A stretch of DNA of 39,578 nucleotides, taken from the sequence record NC_019715.1; one strand, written 5' to 3'. The notes beneath the pieces are model-generated. The model saw only the letters and a program-made list of their open reading frames with translations. It made no database searches and had not been told where the DNA came from. Origin of the DNA: Escherichia phage mEp234. Within the stretch, counting starts at the first letter, position 1. Every line of letters starts with the position of its first letter. Below are positions 5,835-39,578 of this stretch, in pieces. A program made the translations under genes and the position numbers.

Positions 5835-6280
5835 TAGAAACGAGCCTCGATTTTTCCGGCCTGAATGACATAGCAAAGGATCTGGAGGCGCTTAGCCGCG
5901 CTGAAAACAATAAGGTTCTTCGTGATGCCACGCGCGCCGGCGCGGAAGTGCTTAAGGAAGAAGTGATCGCACGTGCACCGGTACGCACCGGAAAACTGAA
6001 AAAAAACGTGGTGGTGGTTACCCAAAAAAGCCGCCGCCGCGGGGAGATTTCTTCCGGCGTCCATATTCGTGGCGTTAACCCGCGCACCGGCAACAGCGAT
6101 AACACGATGAAGGCGAATAACCCGAGAAACGCCTTTTACTGGCGATTCGTTGAGCTGGGCACCGCGAACATGCCTGCACATCCGTTTGTGCGACCCGCTT
6201 ACGATACGCGCGAGGAAGAGGCCGCCAGCGTCGCCATTGCCAGGATGAATCATGCTATTGATGAGGTATTGAGCAAGTGA
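5831..6280 (+). CDS. tail component (HK97 gp10-like family)
   Basis: 149 aa, overlapping start/stop with neighbours; position before tail terminator and major tail gene. Confidence 0.5.
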   Translation: MIETSLDFSGLNDIAKDLEALSRAENNKVLRDATRAGAEVLKEEVIARAPVRTGKLKKNVVVVTQKSRRRGEISSGVHIRGVNPRTGNSDNTMKANNPRNAFYWRFVELGTANMPAHPFVRPAYDTREEEAASVAIARMNHAIDEVLSK

Positions 6281-6624
6281 ATGAAGATAATATCTACGCC
6301 TTGCTTTCTCCCCTGGCAGAGGGGCGGGTATACCCCTATGTTGCGCCATTAGGTAGTGACGGGAAACCGTCTGTCTCTCCACCCTGGATTATCTTTTCCA
6401 TCGTCGATGATGTTTCCGCTGACGTACTGTGTGGCCAGGCAGAGAGCAGGGTTTCCGTTCAGGTCGATGTGTATGCCACAACGATCACTGAATCACGATC
6501 CCTGAGAGATTTGGCGCTCGCTTCGCTTAAGCAGTTAAACCCTACAGAGGTGGTAAAAATCCCCGGGTACGAGCCAGATTATCGGCTCTACCGTGCCACC
6601 CTGGATTTTAAAGTTACCCCCTGA
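6277..6624 (+). CDS. tail completion / tail terminator protein (gpU-position)
   Basis: 115 aa, last gene before major tail protein. Confidence 0.5.
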   Translation: MNEDNIYALLSPLAEGRVYPYVAPLGSDGKPSVSPPWIIFSIVDDVSADVLCGQAESRVSVQVDVYATTITESRSLRDLALASLKQLNPTEVVKIPGYEPDYRLYRATLDFKVTP

Positions 6625-6642
6625 CGATTAATTCACCCAACG

Positions 6643-6670
6643 AACCCGCCTGATGGCGGGTTTTCTTTTT
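6643..6670 (+). terminator. stem-loop plus U-tract upstream of major tail gene
   Basis: CCCGCC-TGAT-GGCGGG followed by TTTTCTTTTT; SD GGAG and ATG 6684 follow. Confidence 0.45.
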
Positions 6671-6683
6671 CCAGGAGACAGCT

Positions 6684-7388
6684 ATGTCTGCACTTTATGA
6701 AAAATCGCAGCTGACGAAGATCCTTATTTCCTCCCTGCCAGCCACCAAAGAAACGATGGATTCCGCCACCTTTCTCGATCTGAGTTGCACCATCAAAGAA
6801 ATTCAGTTCACTGGTGGCCAGAAGCAGGATATCGACGTAACAACACTTTGCTCTACCGAGCAGGAGAACATCAACGGCCTGCCTTCTCCGTCAGAAATCT
6901 CTCTGTCCGGCAACTTCTACAATAATCCAGCGCAGGACGCCTTGCGTGATGCGTATGACAACGACACCACTTACGGCTTCCAGATCATCTTCCCGTCAGG
7001 TAATGGTTTTAAGTTCCTGGCCGAAGTTCGCCAGCATACCTGGTCATCTGGTACCAATGGTGTTGTGGCAGCTACATTCTCACTGCGCCTTAAAGGCAAG
7101 CCTGTCCCGATTGACTCTGTACTTAAACTGACCACTGATCTTCCTTCCTCACTGTCTGTAGCGGTGGGGGCTGCGATCAGCATGGCTGTAGTAGCTGCCG
7201 GTGGTAAGCCTCCGTATGCCTACACCTGGAAGAAGGCAGGTAGCACCGTCAGCGGGCAGACATCCGATACCTTTAATAAAGCCACCGCAGTTTCAGGTGA
7301 TGCAGGTGATTACACCTGTGTGGTTACGGATTCTTCTTCTCCGGTCAAAACGGTTACCTCAGCTGCCTGCACCCTTACTATCAGTTAA
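6684..7388 (+). CDS. major tail protein with C-terminal Ig-like domain
   Basis: 234 aa; C-terminal ~80 aa (KPPYAYTWKKAGSTVSG...GDYTCVVTD) looks like a Big_2/Ig-like domain as on lambda gpV; precedes G/T chaperone genes. Confidence 0.8.
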   Translation: MSALYEKSQLTKILISSLPATKETMDSATFLDLSCTIKEIQFTGGQKQDIDVTTLCSTEQENINGLPSPSEISLSGNFYNNPAQDALRDAYDNDTTYGFQIIFPSGNGFKFLAEVRQHTWSSGTNGVVAATFSLRLKGKPVPIDSVLKLTTDLPSSLSVAVGAAISMAVVAAGGKPPYAYTWKKAGSTVSGQTSDTFNKATAVSGDAGDYTCVVTDSSSPVKTVTSAACTLTIS

Positions 7389-35650: not shown

Positions 35651-35679
35651 TTGACTTTTTGAATAAAGTTGGGTAAATT
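35651..35679 (+). promoter_or_regulatory. late promoter PR' (qut region follows)
   Basis: -35 TTGACT (35651-35656), 17-bp spacer, -10 TAAATT (35674-35679), ~45 nt downstream of Q; matches lambda PR' as recalled. Confidence 0.7.
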
Positions 35680-35717
35680 TGACATCAACGATGGATAAAT
35701 TCACTCGTTAAATAAAG

Positions 35718-35746
35718 CCCTGAGTTAATATCTCGGGGTTTTTTGC
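35718..35746 (+). terminator. terminator close to PR' (tR'-like)
   Basis: CCCTGAG-ttaatat-CTCGGGG (one G:U) followed by TTTTTT, about 55 nt after the predicted PR' start. Confidence 0.55.
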
Positions 35747-36826: not shown

Positions 36827-37260
36827 GCAGAGTAACCGCGATTATCTCCGCTCTGGTTATCTGCATCATCGTCTGCCTGTCATGGGCGGTTAATCATTAC
36901 CGTGATAACGCCATTACCTACAAAGAGCAGCGCGATAAGGCCACATCCACAATCGCTGACATGCAGAAGCGTCAACATGATGTAGCAGAACTCGACGCCA
37001 GATACACAAAGGAGCTTGCTGATGCTAACGCGACTATCGAAAGTCTCCGTGCTGATGTTTCTGCTGGGCGTAAGCGCCTGCAAGTCGCCGCCACCTGTGC
37101 AAAGTCAACGACCGGAGCCAGCAGCATGGGCGATGGAGAAAGCCCAGGACTTACAGCAGATGCTGAACTCAATTATTACCGTCTCCGAAGTGGAATCGAC
37201 AAGATAACCGCGCAGGTTAACTACCTGCAGGAATACATCAGGACGCAATGCCTGAAATAA
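36823..37260 (+). CDS. Rz: i-spanin Rz
   Basis: 145 aa, N-terminal TM helix [23 protein letters not shown] then coiled coil; lambda Rz-like with a divergent C-terminal half. Confidence 0.9.
37022..37207 (+). CDS. Rz1: o-spanin Rz1 (embedded in Rz, +1 frame)
   Basis: 61 aa from ATG 37022 (SD GGAG); lipoprotein signal with lipobox VSAC and proline-rich mature part; wholly inside Rz. Confidence 0.8.
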
Positions 37261-37291
37261 TTTTTTTGCAAATCACAAAGTCAATTTAATG

Positions 37292-37316
37292 AGCCTCGCG
37301 ATGCGGGGCTTTTTTA
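37292..37316 (+). terminator. Rho-independent terminator after Rz
   Basis: AGCCTCGC-GAT-GCGGGGCT (one G:U) followed by TTTTT. Confidence 0.55.
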
Positions 37317-37466
37317 CATCTGCAGTAAACCGCGCATTCTCGTGCGCATATCAACCAAGAGCTTTTCGGGATATGAGACAGAGACAGGACGGTGGCTTAC
37401 ATCGTGCCGCTCTTGGGCTGTCCATGTCTGCGAGAACTGGCTCATATCACCAAAAAGGTAAATACG

Positions 37467-38195
37467 ATGTCCAATATCATCCCGATTGATTTCGAAGGCC
37501 ATCCCATGCGTTTTTCTGACGATGGCTGGTTTGACGCGACTGCGGCAGCTGACAAGTTCAACAAGGAGCCGGCTCAGTGGCTTAGGCTTCCTGAGACTGT
37601 CCGTTACATCGAGGCGTTAAAGAGTAGATATGGGAATATCACATATGTAAAAACCAGCCGCGCTCGCAAAGACCGTGGCGGCGGAACATGGCTTCACCCA
37701 AAACTGGCGGTCAGATTTGCTCGATGGCTTTCTGTAGATTTTGAGATCTGGTGTGATGAGCAAATTGACGCAATCATTCAGGGTTCCGTTCATCATATCG
37801 ACGATGAAAGAATAAAGGCTATTTTCCTTCTGGATAAATCTCAGCCATGGGAAAAGAGGTTTAGCGATCCGTTTTATTCTGCGATGTTCAAAATGTCAGG
37901 GCTGCCCCGCCATCGACCAGGTCGTCGCCCAGCACTATTTGGGATGATCAGTGCCAAGTGGGTATATGGCCCGGTATTACCACCAGAAGTATATGCAGAG
38001 GTTAAAAGACGGCTGGCTGCGGGAGACAAAATCCATCAGCACCTTAAACCTGACGCGCTGACATTGGTTGAGCGACAGATCATTGCCGTTACCAGCATTG
38101 CCAATGGGTGCTCTGATTATCGTGATTTCGAAGCGCGTTGCATGTCGGCATTCCAGGTGAAAGGGCAGATGAAATTGCTCTATGCGGCGGCCTGA
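37467..38195 (+). CDS. KilA-N domain protein with uncharacterised C-terminal domain
   Basis: 242 aa from ATG 37467 (SD AAGGT); N-terminal ~100 aa fit KilA-N (IPIDFEGHPMRF...TWLHPKLAVRFARWLSVDFEIW); C-terminal ~140 aa unknown. Confidence 0.65.
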   Translation: MSNIIPIDFEGHPMRFSDDGWFDATAAADKFNKEPAQWLRLPETVRYIEALKSRYGNITYVKTSRARKDRGGGTWLHPKLAVRFARWLSVDFEIWCDEQIDAIIQGSVHHIDDERIKAIFLLDKSQPWEKRFSDPFYSAMFKMSGLPRHRPGRRPALFGMISAKWVYGPVLPPEVYAEVKRRLAAGDKIHQHLKPDALTLVERQIIAVTSIANGCSDYRDFEARCMSAFQVKGQMKLLYAAA

Positions 38196-38197
38196 TC

Positions 38198-38455
38198 ATG
38201 AGCACCCGAATAATAGAATGCGCCTCCAGAGCGGGGCGCGACTTCTCAGAGTTCATGAAAGGCGAGAAGGGCATGATGGAAGCATTGGCCTCGGTGGATG
38301 AGTTTGGCGAGCAGCTGCGCCTCAACGGCTGTGTCAATCATCACTTTGTTAGCTACATGATGCGGAACTCGATCATGCAGGCATTCATGGACATGGCAAA
38401 AGCCGAGAGGAAAGAAGAGCGCCGGCGTAAGCGAGCGGAAGCAAAAGCGAAGTAG
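38198..38455 (+). CDS. hypothetical protein coupled to KilA-N gene
   Basis: 85 aa; ATG 38198 is 2 nt after the KilA-N stop; basic K/R/E C-terminal tail. Confidence 0.45.
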   Translation: MSTRIIECASRAGRDFSEFMKGEKGMMEALASVDEFGEQLRLNGCVNHHFVSYMMRNSIMQAFMDMAKAERKEERRRKRAEAKAK

Positions 38456-38749
38456 CCATTACAAAGCCCAACTACTGGTGGGCTTGATAATGAAACCGGA
38501 ATTTATTCTGGGCAACCAGTTACGGCAGTACAGCGAAACAACCCAAGCCAGTAAGTGGGGAAATAACACTGGCAGCCACTGAAAGATGAACCTCCTGCCT
38601 TATGGCAAAAAAGATTCTTTGTGGTGGCGGACTGATGGAAAGACATCGGTTATTGCAGAGACCATTCAATGAGTGGTCTCGACAATAGCTTATACCCTAC
38701 ACGGGATAACTTAACTGATATCCCTTTTAACGGATAAACGGAGCCAACA

Positions 38750-38887
38750 ATGGCAGAGATTATTCTCATGACTGAAGAACAGAAATTCCAGTTAGAGATT
38801 TACAAACTGGTCATGAACCAGAACGCCGCCGTGCATGGAGACTGGCATGAACAAAGAGCCCCGCGTATATGGCAGCCGATGGGATAA
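38750..38887 (+). CDS. 45-aa ORF upstream of and overlapping HNH (uncertain)
   Basis: MAEIILMTEEQKFQLEIYKLVMNQNAAVHGDWHEQRAPRIWQPMG; SD GGAG 6 nt upstream; translated by hand. Confidence 0.25.
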   Translation: MAEIILMTEEQKFQLEIYKLVMNQNAAVHGDWHEQRAPRIWQPMG

Positions 38888-39188
38888 GGCCCGTCTGCGT
38901 TTTCTCCAGCAGCACCCACTGTGTGTGATGTGCGAGCAGCAGGGGCGCATAACACCAGCAACGGTGGTCGACCATATCGTGCCCCACAAACTGAAAGATG
39001 CGCTTAAGTCAGGTAACCCTCTGGCCATATCGAAAGCACAGCTCCTGTTCTGGAGTAAAGAGAACTGGCAGCCACTGTGCAAAGCGCATCATGACTCAAC
39101 GAAACAGAGAATGGAGAAGAGCGGCGCGGTAATCGGTTGTGATGCCAACGGCTACCCGCTCGATCCTGCGTCTCACTGGAGCACGTAA
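38835..39188 (+). CDS. HNH endonuclease (terminase-associated, HK97 gp74-like)
   Basis: HNH signature (C..C...VDHIVPH...N...LCKAHH); position just before cos and the terminase genes; likely start ATG 38847 (SD GGAG). Confidence 0.85.
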   Translation: METGMNKEPRVYGSRWDKARLRFLQQHPLCVMCEQQGRITPATVVDHIVPHKLKDALKSGNPLAISKAQLLFWSKENWQPLCKAHHDSTKQRMEKSGAVIGCDANGYPLDPASHWST

Positions 39189-39391: not shown

Positions 39392-39578
39392 CGCGGCGGC
39401 GGCAAGTAGATTATCTATCATGTGAAATCATTTCAAATGCAACGATATCAAATGAGAATGAATCGCATTCAGGGCAGGGGGGGGGGGATCAAATCTTCAA
39501 AACCTTTGCCCCAAATGACCGCCGCCAAAGTTTGAATTTAACGCTAACCCGATTTTTTTAGTTTTAAGGTGTTGACAT
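39392..39578. other. candidate cos / packaging region
   Basis: GC-rich CGCGGCGGCGGC (39392-39403), an 11-G run (39477-39487) and inverted CCGCCGCC (39509-39516) lie between the last late gene and the terminase SD. Confidence 0.4.

Follow-up and report, generated by a model that had tools for sequence, protein, structure and literature searches.

Long hairpins that lie beside or over the Shine-Dalgarno (SD) sequence keep the product low in a number of phage leaders, including the MS2 maturation gene, the lambda N leader, the T7 R-sites, and the ribosome-binding-site hairpins of T4 homing-endonuclease genes; the R-sites of phage T7 and the lambda N leader are RNase III processing sites. Among phage proteins, Bro-N, AntA, Rha, and KilA-N are said to make up a shuffled class, reportedly described by Iyer, Koonin and Aravind in 2002. 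BstA, a prophage-encoded protein with a KilA-N-like domain, has been published as an abortive-infection factor; it is encoded downstream of cI and expressed in lysogens (PMC8585504). In homing-type nucleases of the T5orf172 kind the non-nuclease end binds DNA, and domains of this sort also serve by themselves as regulators, CapR being an example (PMC10448857). Here we describe a locus of the Escherichia phage mEp234 genome (NC_019715.1; 39,578 nucleotides [nt], the whole of which is referred to as the window) in which a KilA-N gene (gene A) and a coupled gene for an 85-amino-acid (85-aa) protein (gene B) are preceded by a conserved, structured RNA leader.

We interpret positions 37291-38455 as a mobile, non-essential cassette of the late operon, consisting of a terminator, the leader, the KilA-N and P63C gene, and the coupled 85-aa gene, and assign to this reading, including the mechanism proposed below, a probability of about one half. 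The initial annotation of this DNA, made from the sequence alone, singled out the two genes and overlooked the conserved structured leader (37312-37466), which falls within the interval that it reported. The leader is the more interesting part: it is supported by covariation, has two exclusive folds, carries no annotation in RefSeq E. coli genomes, and is absent from Rfam, release 15 of which has no family that matches the core of the mEp234, Stx-phage, or Salmonella versions (the only matches, below threshold, fall on the terminator hairpin). No RNA motif linked to KilA-N was found in the searchable literature.

The leader has a folding z-score of -3.7, and at its 3' end the SD sequence AAGG (37455-37458) is followed by the ATG at 37467. 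Comparative sequence analysis shows that it holds two mutually exclusive folds, each kept by covariation (helices in Table 1). The folds exclude one another because P3 and P5 share a 5' strand, and because P1 crosses the long hairpin with zero-length connectors. This hairpin is formed by S1-S4 and P5 as one interrupted structure of roughly 30 base pairs (bp; strands 37362-37393 / 37417-37457), with a conserved asymmetric internal loop, GCGAGAA, in its 3' strand. In the model-guided alignment, each of the 15 base pairs that make up S1-S3 has two-sided changes, and 82% of the cells are paired; for S4 the paired fraction is 98.8%, and GC and AU are split 21/20. For P0, the five pairs all have two-sided changes (e.g., CG to UA in 10 sequences) and 82% of cells are paired. 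A sequence-only alignment gives the same picture. Helices of varying register (P1, P5, and P3) were assessed by per-sequence tests against foreign partners. P1 is a 6-8-bp helix in every sequence (mean 6.7 bp; 24 distinct helix sequences); in 9.9% of comparisons a foreign partner does as well as the native one; P5 has a mean of 7.1 bp and 28 distinct helix sequences, with the foreign partner as good in 9.6%; P3 is likewise found in every sequence (mean 6.2 bp; 30 distinct helix sequences). The whole structure is 77% paired, vs. 67% in shuffles (0 of 500 reach 77%) and 38-57% with slid partners, both of which are controls that ignore phylogeny. G-U pairs are frequent, and thus the structure is specific to the sense strand.

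Prefix folding gives fold I (P1 and P3) as the most stable structure at 106-120 nt, and the long hairpin from about 130 nt. Of 43 leaders, about 21 have both Gs of the SD paired with a CCUUU-type sequence at the base of the hairpin; eight others, among them mEp234, have a single G so paired. Other interpretations of the leader were considered and rejected. A hammerhead-like CUGANGA motif is a misfit across the sequences, and there is no match to an Rfam ribozyme. Zero-length loops make it geometrically impossible for P1 and the complete long stem to form an H-type pseudoknot, hence the assignment to alternative folds. A single-stranded DNA site resembling an integron attC has no integrase nearby, and the many G-U pairs favor an RNA of the sense strand.

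As regards the leader only, the long hairpin might be an RNase III processing site that frees the cargo mRNA from the late polycistron, rather than part of a two-state translational switch. The length of the interrupted duplex and the position of its conserved internal loop, directly 5' of the SD, are consistent with this, as is the location of the SD outside the stem in about a third of leaders. However, covariation also maintains P1 and P3, helices that cannot coexist with the hairpin and that a pure processing site could dispense with. We therefore regard processing as the sole role of the hairpin as doubtful, if a serious candidate; RNase III processing and a two-state switch are not mutually exclusive.

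Table 1. Coordinates of the features of the cassette in the mEp234 window.
Feature	Position	Strand	Details
Intrinsic terminator after Rz	37291-37311	+	9-bp GC-rich hairpin GAGCCTCGCGATGCGGGGCTT and T-run; terminator scan; whole feature listed to 37317; 5' boundary of cassette
Structured leader, 5' untranslated region of the KilA-N gene	37312-37466	+	155 nt; nhmmer and covariance model R1
P0	37332-37336 / 37343-37347	+	GCGCA / TGCGC; both folds
P1	37355-37361 / 37410-37416	+	CCAAGAG / CTCTTGG; fold I
S1	37362-37369 / 37450-37457	+	anti-SD CUUUU / AAAAG; fold II; 3' strand reaches first G of SD
S2	37370-37377 / 37441-37448	+	GAUAUGAG / CUCAUAUC; fold II
S3	37379-37380 / 37438-37439	+	fold II
S4	37382-37385 / 37426-37429	+	AGAC / GUCU; fold II
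P5	37387-37393 / 37417-37423	+	strand X GGACGGU / GCUGUCC; fold II
P3	37389-37394 / 37400-37405	+	ACGGUG / CAUCGU; fold I; uses strand X, alternative to P5
Gene A (KilA-N + P63C)	ATG 37467 to TGA 38195	+	242 aa; homologue of HK97 gp73; Mx8 p63 architecture
Gene B	ATG 38198 to TAG 38455	+	85 aa; starts 2 nt past gene A stop; phrog_875
Hairpin AGCCCA-8 nt-TGGGCT	38465-38484	+	10 nt past gene B stop; no T-run; read from sequence

The covariance model R1 gave 46 matches of 43-130 bits, with a single copy in the mEp234 window (37314-37472); nhmmer also detects the leader, and a second search gave further copies. Matches always end at the start codon, and when the spacers of loci with different first genes are aligned, the Rz-to-start spacer is conserved whatever the cargo. 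Blastn recovers the mEp234-type leader only (25 genomes), the other leader types being too diverged in sequence. The leader is spread across prophages of the Enterobacterales. Together with KilA-N-P63C genes it is found in Escherichia, Klebsiella, Raoultella, Pantoea, Providencia, Proteus, and Morganella, and further in Xenorhabdus, Photorhabdus, Gilliamella, Leminorella, Trabulsiella, Erwinia, and Cedecea. The other cargoes are genes for KilA-N-ORF11CD3, P22_AR_N-ORF11CD3 (PHROG 'anti-repressor Ant'), HNH_3-AP2, and B-like-T5orf172 proteins, and one open reading frame (ORF) of 155 aa. Directly upstream of the leader there is an intrinsic terminator in 33 of 41 distinct copies, with stem sequences that differ. 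Pantoea sp. 1.19 has a tandem arrangement (L009:4528-5187, 5857-6726) of a leader and KilA-N-ORF11CD3 gene followed by a leader and KilA-N-P63C gene; thus, the leader marks each cargo gene separately.

R1 detected no leader upstream of Pseudomonas-type KilA-N genes, or upstream of the Acinetobacter and Comamonas homologues of gene A. KilA-N-P63C genes of Acinetobacter, Agitococcus, Paenalcaligenes, and Castellaniella occur without the enterobacterial leader (L025, L043, L044, L037, and L030) and share a different conserved block about 150 nt upstream (CTAGGG..GCTCCCGAAAG..GAAGATGG...CATCTTCTTG), possibly a second class of leader. Additionally, some viral contigs similar to mEp234 (L088:6890-7024, also L089 and L091) have a second, weaker leader about 635 nt downstream of the 85-aa gene, where it precedes the 155-aa ORF (without Pfam family); in a further contig (L143:7085-7226) the second leader precedes an ORF of 54 aa. 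These second copies score 52-56 bits.

The slot downstream of Rz is variable among otherwise collinear relatives: the HK97 group has the cassette and HK75 and HK542 lack it, with HK542 carrying other genes in the slot and HK75 leading almost straight to the HNH gene. HK75 retains the leader and a 98-codon stump of gene A, and HK542 the leader and a 75-codon stump, in both cases without gene B; because both phages form plaques, the gene pair is not essential. In prophages, the cassette is located after Rz/LysC, between the tail assembly chaperone gene and the tape measure gene, and in one case between Q and the holin gene. The pair has also been recorded for KP12, a supposedly virulent phage of the Vequintavirinae (OM835954.1, clone KP12_4). 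We reject this placement: the contig is 96-97% identical to temperate Klebsiella phages (e.g., ST15-VIM1phi2.1), and it is probably prophage-derived, or the Vequintavirinae label is inapplicable to it.

Downstream of Q, a promoter-like site (TTGACT-17-TAAATT, 35651-35679) is followed by a terminator (35714-35742); region 35651-35742 presumably represents pR' together with the short tR' transcript. The same region has a sub-threshold Rfam match to isrJ (28 bits vs. a gathering score of 37). A promoter scan of 37261-37466 found no sigma-70-like site on the + strand, the scan covering sigma-70 consensus sites only, such that a weak or factor-dependent promoter in the leader stays possible; the leader alignment has no conserved -35/-10 pair. 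Both tR' and a second terminator precede gene A, which is part of the Q-dependent late operon. Located there and lacking its own promoter, the cassette is not a classical promoter-gene-terminator moron. The slot had been put forward as a known moron site, and this fits in so far as the slot is variable among relatives (HK542, HK75, Salmonella, and Klebsiella), and fails on the lack of a promoter and the dependence on Q.

Over the 1240 bases around the cassette, identity is 100% to Escherichia phage mEp234 (PV340539.1) and 98.7% to HK97; mEp234 is an HK97-like lambdoid phage. The gene order is Q, S, R, Rz, cassette, a 45-aa ORF, HNH endonuclease, a 67-aa ORF, and terminase. The Rz stop is at 37260, and the HNH gene (38835-39188) encodes a homologue of HK97 gp74. 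Thus, the arrangement reported in the initial annotation is correct as to the terminator after Rz, the 242-aa protein with an N-terminal KilA-N domain, the 85-aa gene with a basic tail 2 nt further on, and the position of the pair between the lysis cassette (S/R/Rz) and HNH. The hairpin downstream of gene B is not among the results of the terminator scan; it may represent the 3' edge of the cassette and may not be a canonical terminator. In a GenBank record of 2025, gene A is labelled 'KilA-N-P63C' and gene B 'hypothetical protein'; the gene pair is a member of an annotated, functionally uncharacterized family that is already catalogued. Two alternative reading frames were rejected. A 267-aa ORF from GTG 37392 is not gene A, given that the leader family stops at ATG 37467 (the alignment of about 45 loci ends exactly there) and homologues begin with MSNII. 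A 66-aa ORF from ATG 37289 overlaps the leader; its ATG lies within the stem of the terminator, and in the family alignment indels of 1 and 2 nt occur alongside covariation of paired columns. A run of 11 G (39477-39487) is located in the non-coding DNA that separates the 67-aa ORF from the right end, close to where the cos/terminase region is expected.

Gene A matches Pfam KilA-N (PF04383) over residues 8-105 (E 1.2e-22, 80.2 bits vs. a cut-off of 23.8), and its fold is of the APSES/KilA-N type. The C-terminal domain, which had been left unassigned, matches Pfam P63C (PF10546) over residues 117-192 (E 7.7e-11, 42.9 bits vs. 26.1). The protein belongs to phrog_1136, and the N-terminal domain also matches phrog_129, annotated as a transcriptional regulator. 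The AlphaFold model of gene A has a mean predicted local distance difference test (pLDDT) score of 86, and in a Foldseek search against viral models it matches p63 of Myxococcus phage Mx8 over its full length (E 8e-9); P63C appears to be named after that protein. PDB sequence searches gave no match for the gene A family profile, and chance-level matches only for gene A alone (E 0.1 or higher). The gene A family comprises 1133 protein clusters from the Gamma- and Betaproteobacteria. Compared with the copies of Klebsiella KP12 and Raoultella (about 79% DNA identity), the non-synonymous (pN) and synonymous (pS) differences of gene A are 0.07-0.08 and 0.76-0.77, respectively (pN/pS about 0.09); for gene B they are 0.18-0.19 and 0.69-0.72 (pN/pS about 0.25). 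Because synonymous sites are near saturation while non-synonymous differences are low, genes A and B are judged to be real, and both under purifying selection.

A search with the C-terminal domain only in a library of 1.8 billion representative proteins retrieved 105 proteins, and 74 sequences were aligned (gene A and 73 others). Among the proteins retrieved, P63C is at the C-terminus of those with 230-360 aa, and in the alignment it was detected, again C-terminally, in 72 of the 74 sequences; the N-terminal partners are KilA-N (9), Bro-N (7), Rha (7), and AntA (6), and for the remaining proteins Pfam gives no phage-regulator N-domain. From these pairings, P63C is identified as one swappable C-terminal module of the shuffled phage-regulator class. 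The only near-invariant residues in the alignment are W128, F132, P155, Y167, H190, and Q191, which do not look like a catalytic set. Pfam and PHROG scans found no nuclease domain in gene A or gene B. Gene A most likely binds DNA via KilA-N, to judge from its domain content.

The initial annotation pointed to antirepressors and to a described abortive-infection protein as KilA-N precedents. The latter exists, namely BstA (PMC8585504), but gene A matches neither a BstA nor a KilAC/ANT model, and the defense or antirepressor reading is unsupported by tests of family membership. As an antirepressor, A together with B would inactivate a repressor (e.g., that of a heteroimmune resident prophage) or reinforce commitment to lysis. 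The N-terminal partners of P63C (AntA, Bro-N, Rha, and KilA-N) are those of known antirepressor C-domains, one cargo under the leader is the P22_AR_N protein of PHROG 'anti-repressor Ant', and the phrog_129 annotation points the same way, but PHROG names are annotations, not tests. Furthermore, a Pfam scan of gene A (E up to 1) detected no KilAC/ANT (PF03374) or P22_AR_C domain, only KilA-N, P63C, and a sub-threshold SocA_Panacea match; late, Q-dependent expression falls after the lysis decision; and no repressor, LexA, or small RNA control region typical of ant genes was seen. Antirepression is thus unlikely, and decidedly so.

Alternatively, the pair might act in lysogens as a BstA-like abortive-infection or exclusion moron, in which A would sense the replicating DNA of an invader and abort the infection, with B as cofactor or immunity factor. 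BstA is also prophage-borne and has a KilA-N-like N-domain joined to an unrelated C-domain, the slot is variable among related phages, and the PADLOC scan of gene A gave a weak match to PDC-S22 (E 9e-5, 30 residues of the KilA-N core). However, no PADLOC BstA model matches gene A; gene A lies in the late operon, behind tR' and the second terminator and without a promoter-like site, whereas bstA is on the cI transcript; and leader and slot also carry genes of homing-endonuclease type. We consider a BstA-like role very improbable.

Gene B has no good SD sequence of its own and is translationally coupled to gene A by the 2-nt gap. It belongs to phrog_875 (E 1e-53), without a match to any Pfam or NCBIfam family. 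The AlphaFold2 model (pLDDT 91.6) consists of three helices (residues 3-20, 26-42, and 48-84, the last of 37 residues), and the C-terminal tail is KEERRRKRAEAKAK, with an isoelectric point (pI) of 10.9 for the last 17 residues. Foldseek against the PDB returned nothing at E 0.001 or better, and a PDB sequence search with the alignment of B-like sequences returned chance-level matches only (E 0.1 or higher). A zinc site (C8, C45, H48, and H49) was considered and rejected: C8 and both histidines are not kept in fused relatives of phrog_4284. In the HK97 record (AF069529, 3938-4196, equivalent to 38198-38455 of the window), one extra G (CATGGATG vs. CATGATG) frameshifts gene B, which is why HK97 has no annotated 85-aa gene; the extra G may be a genuine mutation, or else an error in the old sequence.

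The gene B family numbers 137 protein clusters, from Enterobacteriaceae only. In the IMG/VR contigs retrieved with B, a KilA-N gene is immediately upstream in 80 of 80 viral loci: nine are of the P63C type (2-nt gap) and 71 of the ORF11CD3 type (ATGA overlap), the latter encoding a protein of 165 aa that is only 24% identical to gene A. In Scandinavium, B is 91% identical and A 48% identical; therefore, on this comparison and the gene linkage, gene B follows KilA-N, not P63C. Across about 40 full-length gene A loci of different species, B is downstream only in the copies of Escherichia, Klebsiella, Raoultella, Trabulsiella, and Scandinavium. Among complete E. coli genomes, B is present in 427 of 5426 and the combination of A and B in 18.

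A domain like B, with the motifs RAG..[FY]S[DE]F and GC..HHFV, forms the N-terminal half of T5orf172 'GIY-YIG family' proteins of 162-174 aa (phrog_4284, to which gene B matches with E 2.9e-6). In Oceanisphaera, such a fusion (B profile E 1.2e-14; phrog_875 E 2.7e-9) is encoded directly upstream of a KilA-N-P63C gene, and in Salmonella and Klebsiella prophages a B-like-T5orf172 gene occupies the slot after Rz. Since the non-nuclease end of T5orf172 nucleases is DNA-binding (PMC10448857), gene B is by inference a targeting or adaptor domain, an assignment made by analogy. In one Klebsiella prophage (L171:4489-5187), the stop of the B-like-T5orf172 gene overlaps the start of a downstream gene for a 232-aa Endonuclease_NS protein (PF01223), such that two nuclease-type genes share the slot.

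The coupling of the genes also raises the possibility of a kil/antidote pair, in which A would be toxic to the host, B would neutralize or tune it, and the leader would keep the toxin off. This would agree with the tight coupling of A and B, with a leader that appears to restrict translation, and with sub-threshold matches of gene A residues 153-207, in the P63C region, to the SocA/Panacea antitoxins (Pfam E 0.17, NCBIfam E 0.096). Those matches are far under the cut-offs, however (13 bits vs. 25.7; 12 vs. 190), most A homologues have no B, and the linkage of B to P63C is not visibly tighter than to ORF11CD3. Neither A nor B matches a known toxin or antitoxin family above threshold, and B matches only PHROGs of no assigned function. 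A toxin and antidote thus have little to recommend them as an account of the pair.

A selfish origin has somewhat more in its favor, yet we still think it unlikely. The cassette would descend from homing endonucleases and bring no benefit to the phage, with A and B as DNA-binding remnants or site-occupying 'immunity' derivatives that spread by co-conversion with the leader. The leader and intergenic slots also carry HNH_3-AP2 and T5orf172 genes, the B domain corresponds to the non-nuclease end of T5orf172 proteins, and the distribution is patchy, with decayed copies in HK75, HK542, and HK97; T5orf172 genes behave as homing endonucleases, the DNA-binding domains of which are reused, as in CapR (PMC10448857). 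On the other side, A and B lack a nuclease domain, both are under strong purifying selection over a saturated synonymous distance, and the presence of A in 1133 clusters from two proteobacterial classes argues for a selected function.

Returning to the mobile late-operon cassette, we propose the following mechanism. Because there is no promoter and there are terminators upstream, the cassette would be transcribed only late in lytic growth, by Q-modified, terminator-resistant polymerase. The nascent leader would adopt fold I first, with fold II taking over once about 130 nt have been made; in most family members, fold II would pair the CCUUU-type anti-SD with the SD. In this way the leader may gate or limit translation of gene A and, through coupling, that of gene B, by means of either a kinetic window or a switch under the control of a factor; RNase III might cut at the long hairpin. 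Because KilA-N-ORF11CD3, P22-Ant-N-ORF11CD3, HNH_3-AP2, and B-like-T5orf172 genes carry the same leader, it plausibly serves as a common control element for a class of DNA-binding and nuclease genes that are shuffled horizontally and potentially toxic. In gene A, KilA-N would bind DNA and P63C would be an interaction or effector module; gene B would be an accessory partner of KilA-N proteins, its domain being the targeting end of T5orf172 nucleases. Together, A and B would probably act on DNA during the late phase of infection, whether as regulators or in conflicts with other mobile elements, with protection of the lysogen less likely; this is the weakest step of the proposal.

Several observations weigh against this interpretation, besides the disregard of phylogeny by the covariation controls and the restriction of the promoter scan to consensus sites. 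P3 has weaker support than P1 and P5, a foreign partner being as good in 24% of comparisons, and the computed minimum free energy hairpin of mEp234 is in a slightly different register from the one supported by covariation. The SD is inside the stem in about two thirds of leaders, but 2-8 nt downstream of it in about 14 of 43, and therefore masking of the SD is not the whole mechanism. Most A homologues outside the Enterobacteriaceae have no B; thus, A can do without B. That A and B bind DNA, and that they contact one another, is inferred from domain relatives and gene linkage only, and the searchable literature holds no experimental data on gp73, the 85-aa protein, or P63C.

A broader proposal is more tentative, and we put it forward as possible rather than probable: the leader would be an undescribed class of cis-regulatory RNA (a terminator-preceded two-state switch that serves as a portable module for a guild of shuffled late-operon genes, KilA-N, Ant-N, HNH-AP2, and T5orf172, in Enterobacterales prophages), and A and B would together form a two-part DNA-targeting effector in conflicts among phages, satellites, and homing elements, with B as a free-standing T5orf172 targeting domain. 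If the leader does act as a switch, this would account for the ability of temperate phages to carry DNA-binding and nuclease genes that are potentially toxic inside their essential late operons, and the leader would provide a sequence tag for finding such cargo. Judged by carriers of the 85-aa gene, no fewer than about 8% of complete E. coli genomes contain the leader, O157:H7 prophages included, and KilA-N-P63C proteins make up more than a thousand protein clusters. New here are the tracking of KilA-N by B, the double use of the B domain as the non-nuclease half of T5orf172 nucleases, and the leader RNA, which is unreported.

Of the described systems, HK97 gp73 and Mx8 p63 are the same as gene A in domain order and length, and gp73 also in its position between Rz and the HNH gene gp74; there is no material difference, and gene A is a member of this family with a function that is predicted only. 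BstA resembles gene A in having an N-terminal KilA-N-type domain and an unrelated C-domain of about 150 aa, and in being prophage-borne and non-essential. Gene A differs in its P63C C-domain and the lack of a BstA profile match, in its place in the late operon behind terminators rather than downstream of cI, and in having a coupled partner and a structured leader, whereas BstA has a DNA element, aba, at its 5' end (PMC8585504). P22 Ant and P1 Ant-KilA share with gene A the combination of a modular N-terminal DNA-binding domain and a swappable C-terminal module, and an Ant-N homologue uses the same leader; unlike them, gene A has no KilAC/ANT or P22_AR_C domain, and its regulatory context differs. 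Free-standing homing endonucleases (T5orf172/GIY-YIG and HNH_3-AP2; PMC10448857) are likewise inserted sporadically between conserved late genes and have the same leader, whereas A and B have no recognizable nuclease domain. Finally, the mEp234 leader has a long hairpin at the SD and an alternative early fold, like the phage leaders named at the outset, but belongs to another sequence family with no Rfam match, is preceded by a terminator, and is common to unrelated cargo genes in many genera.

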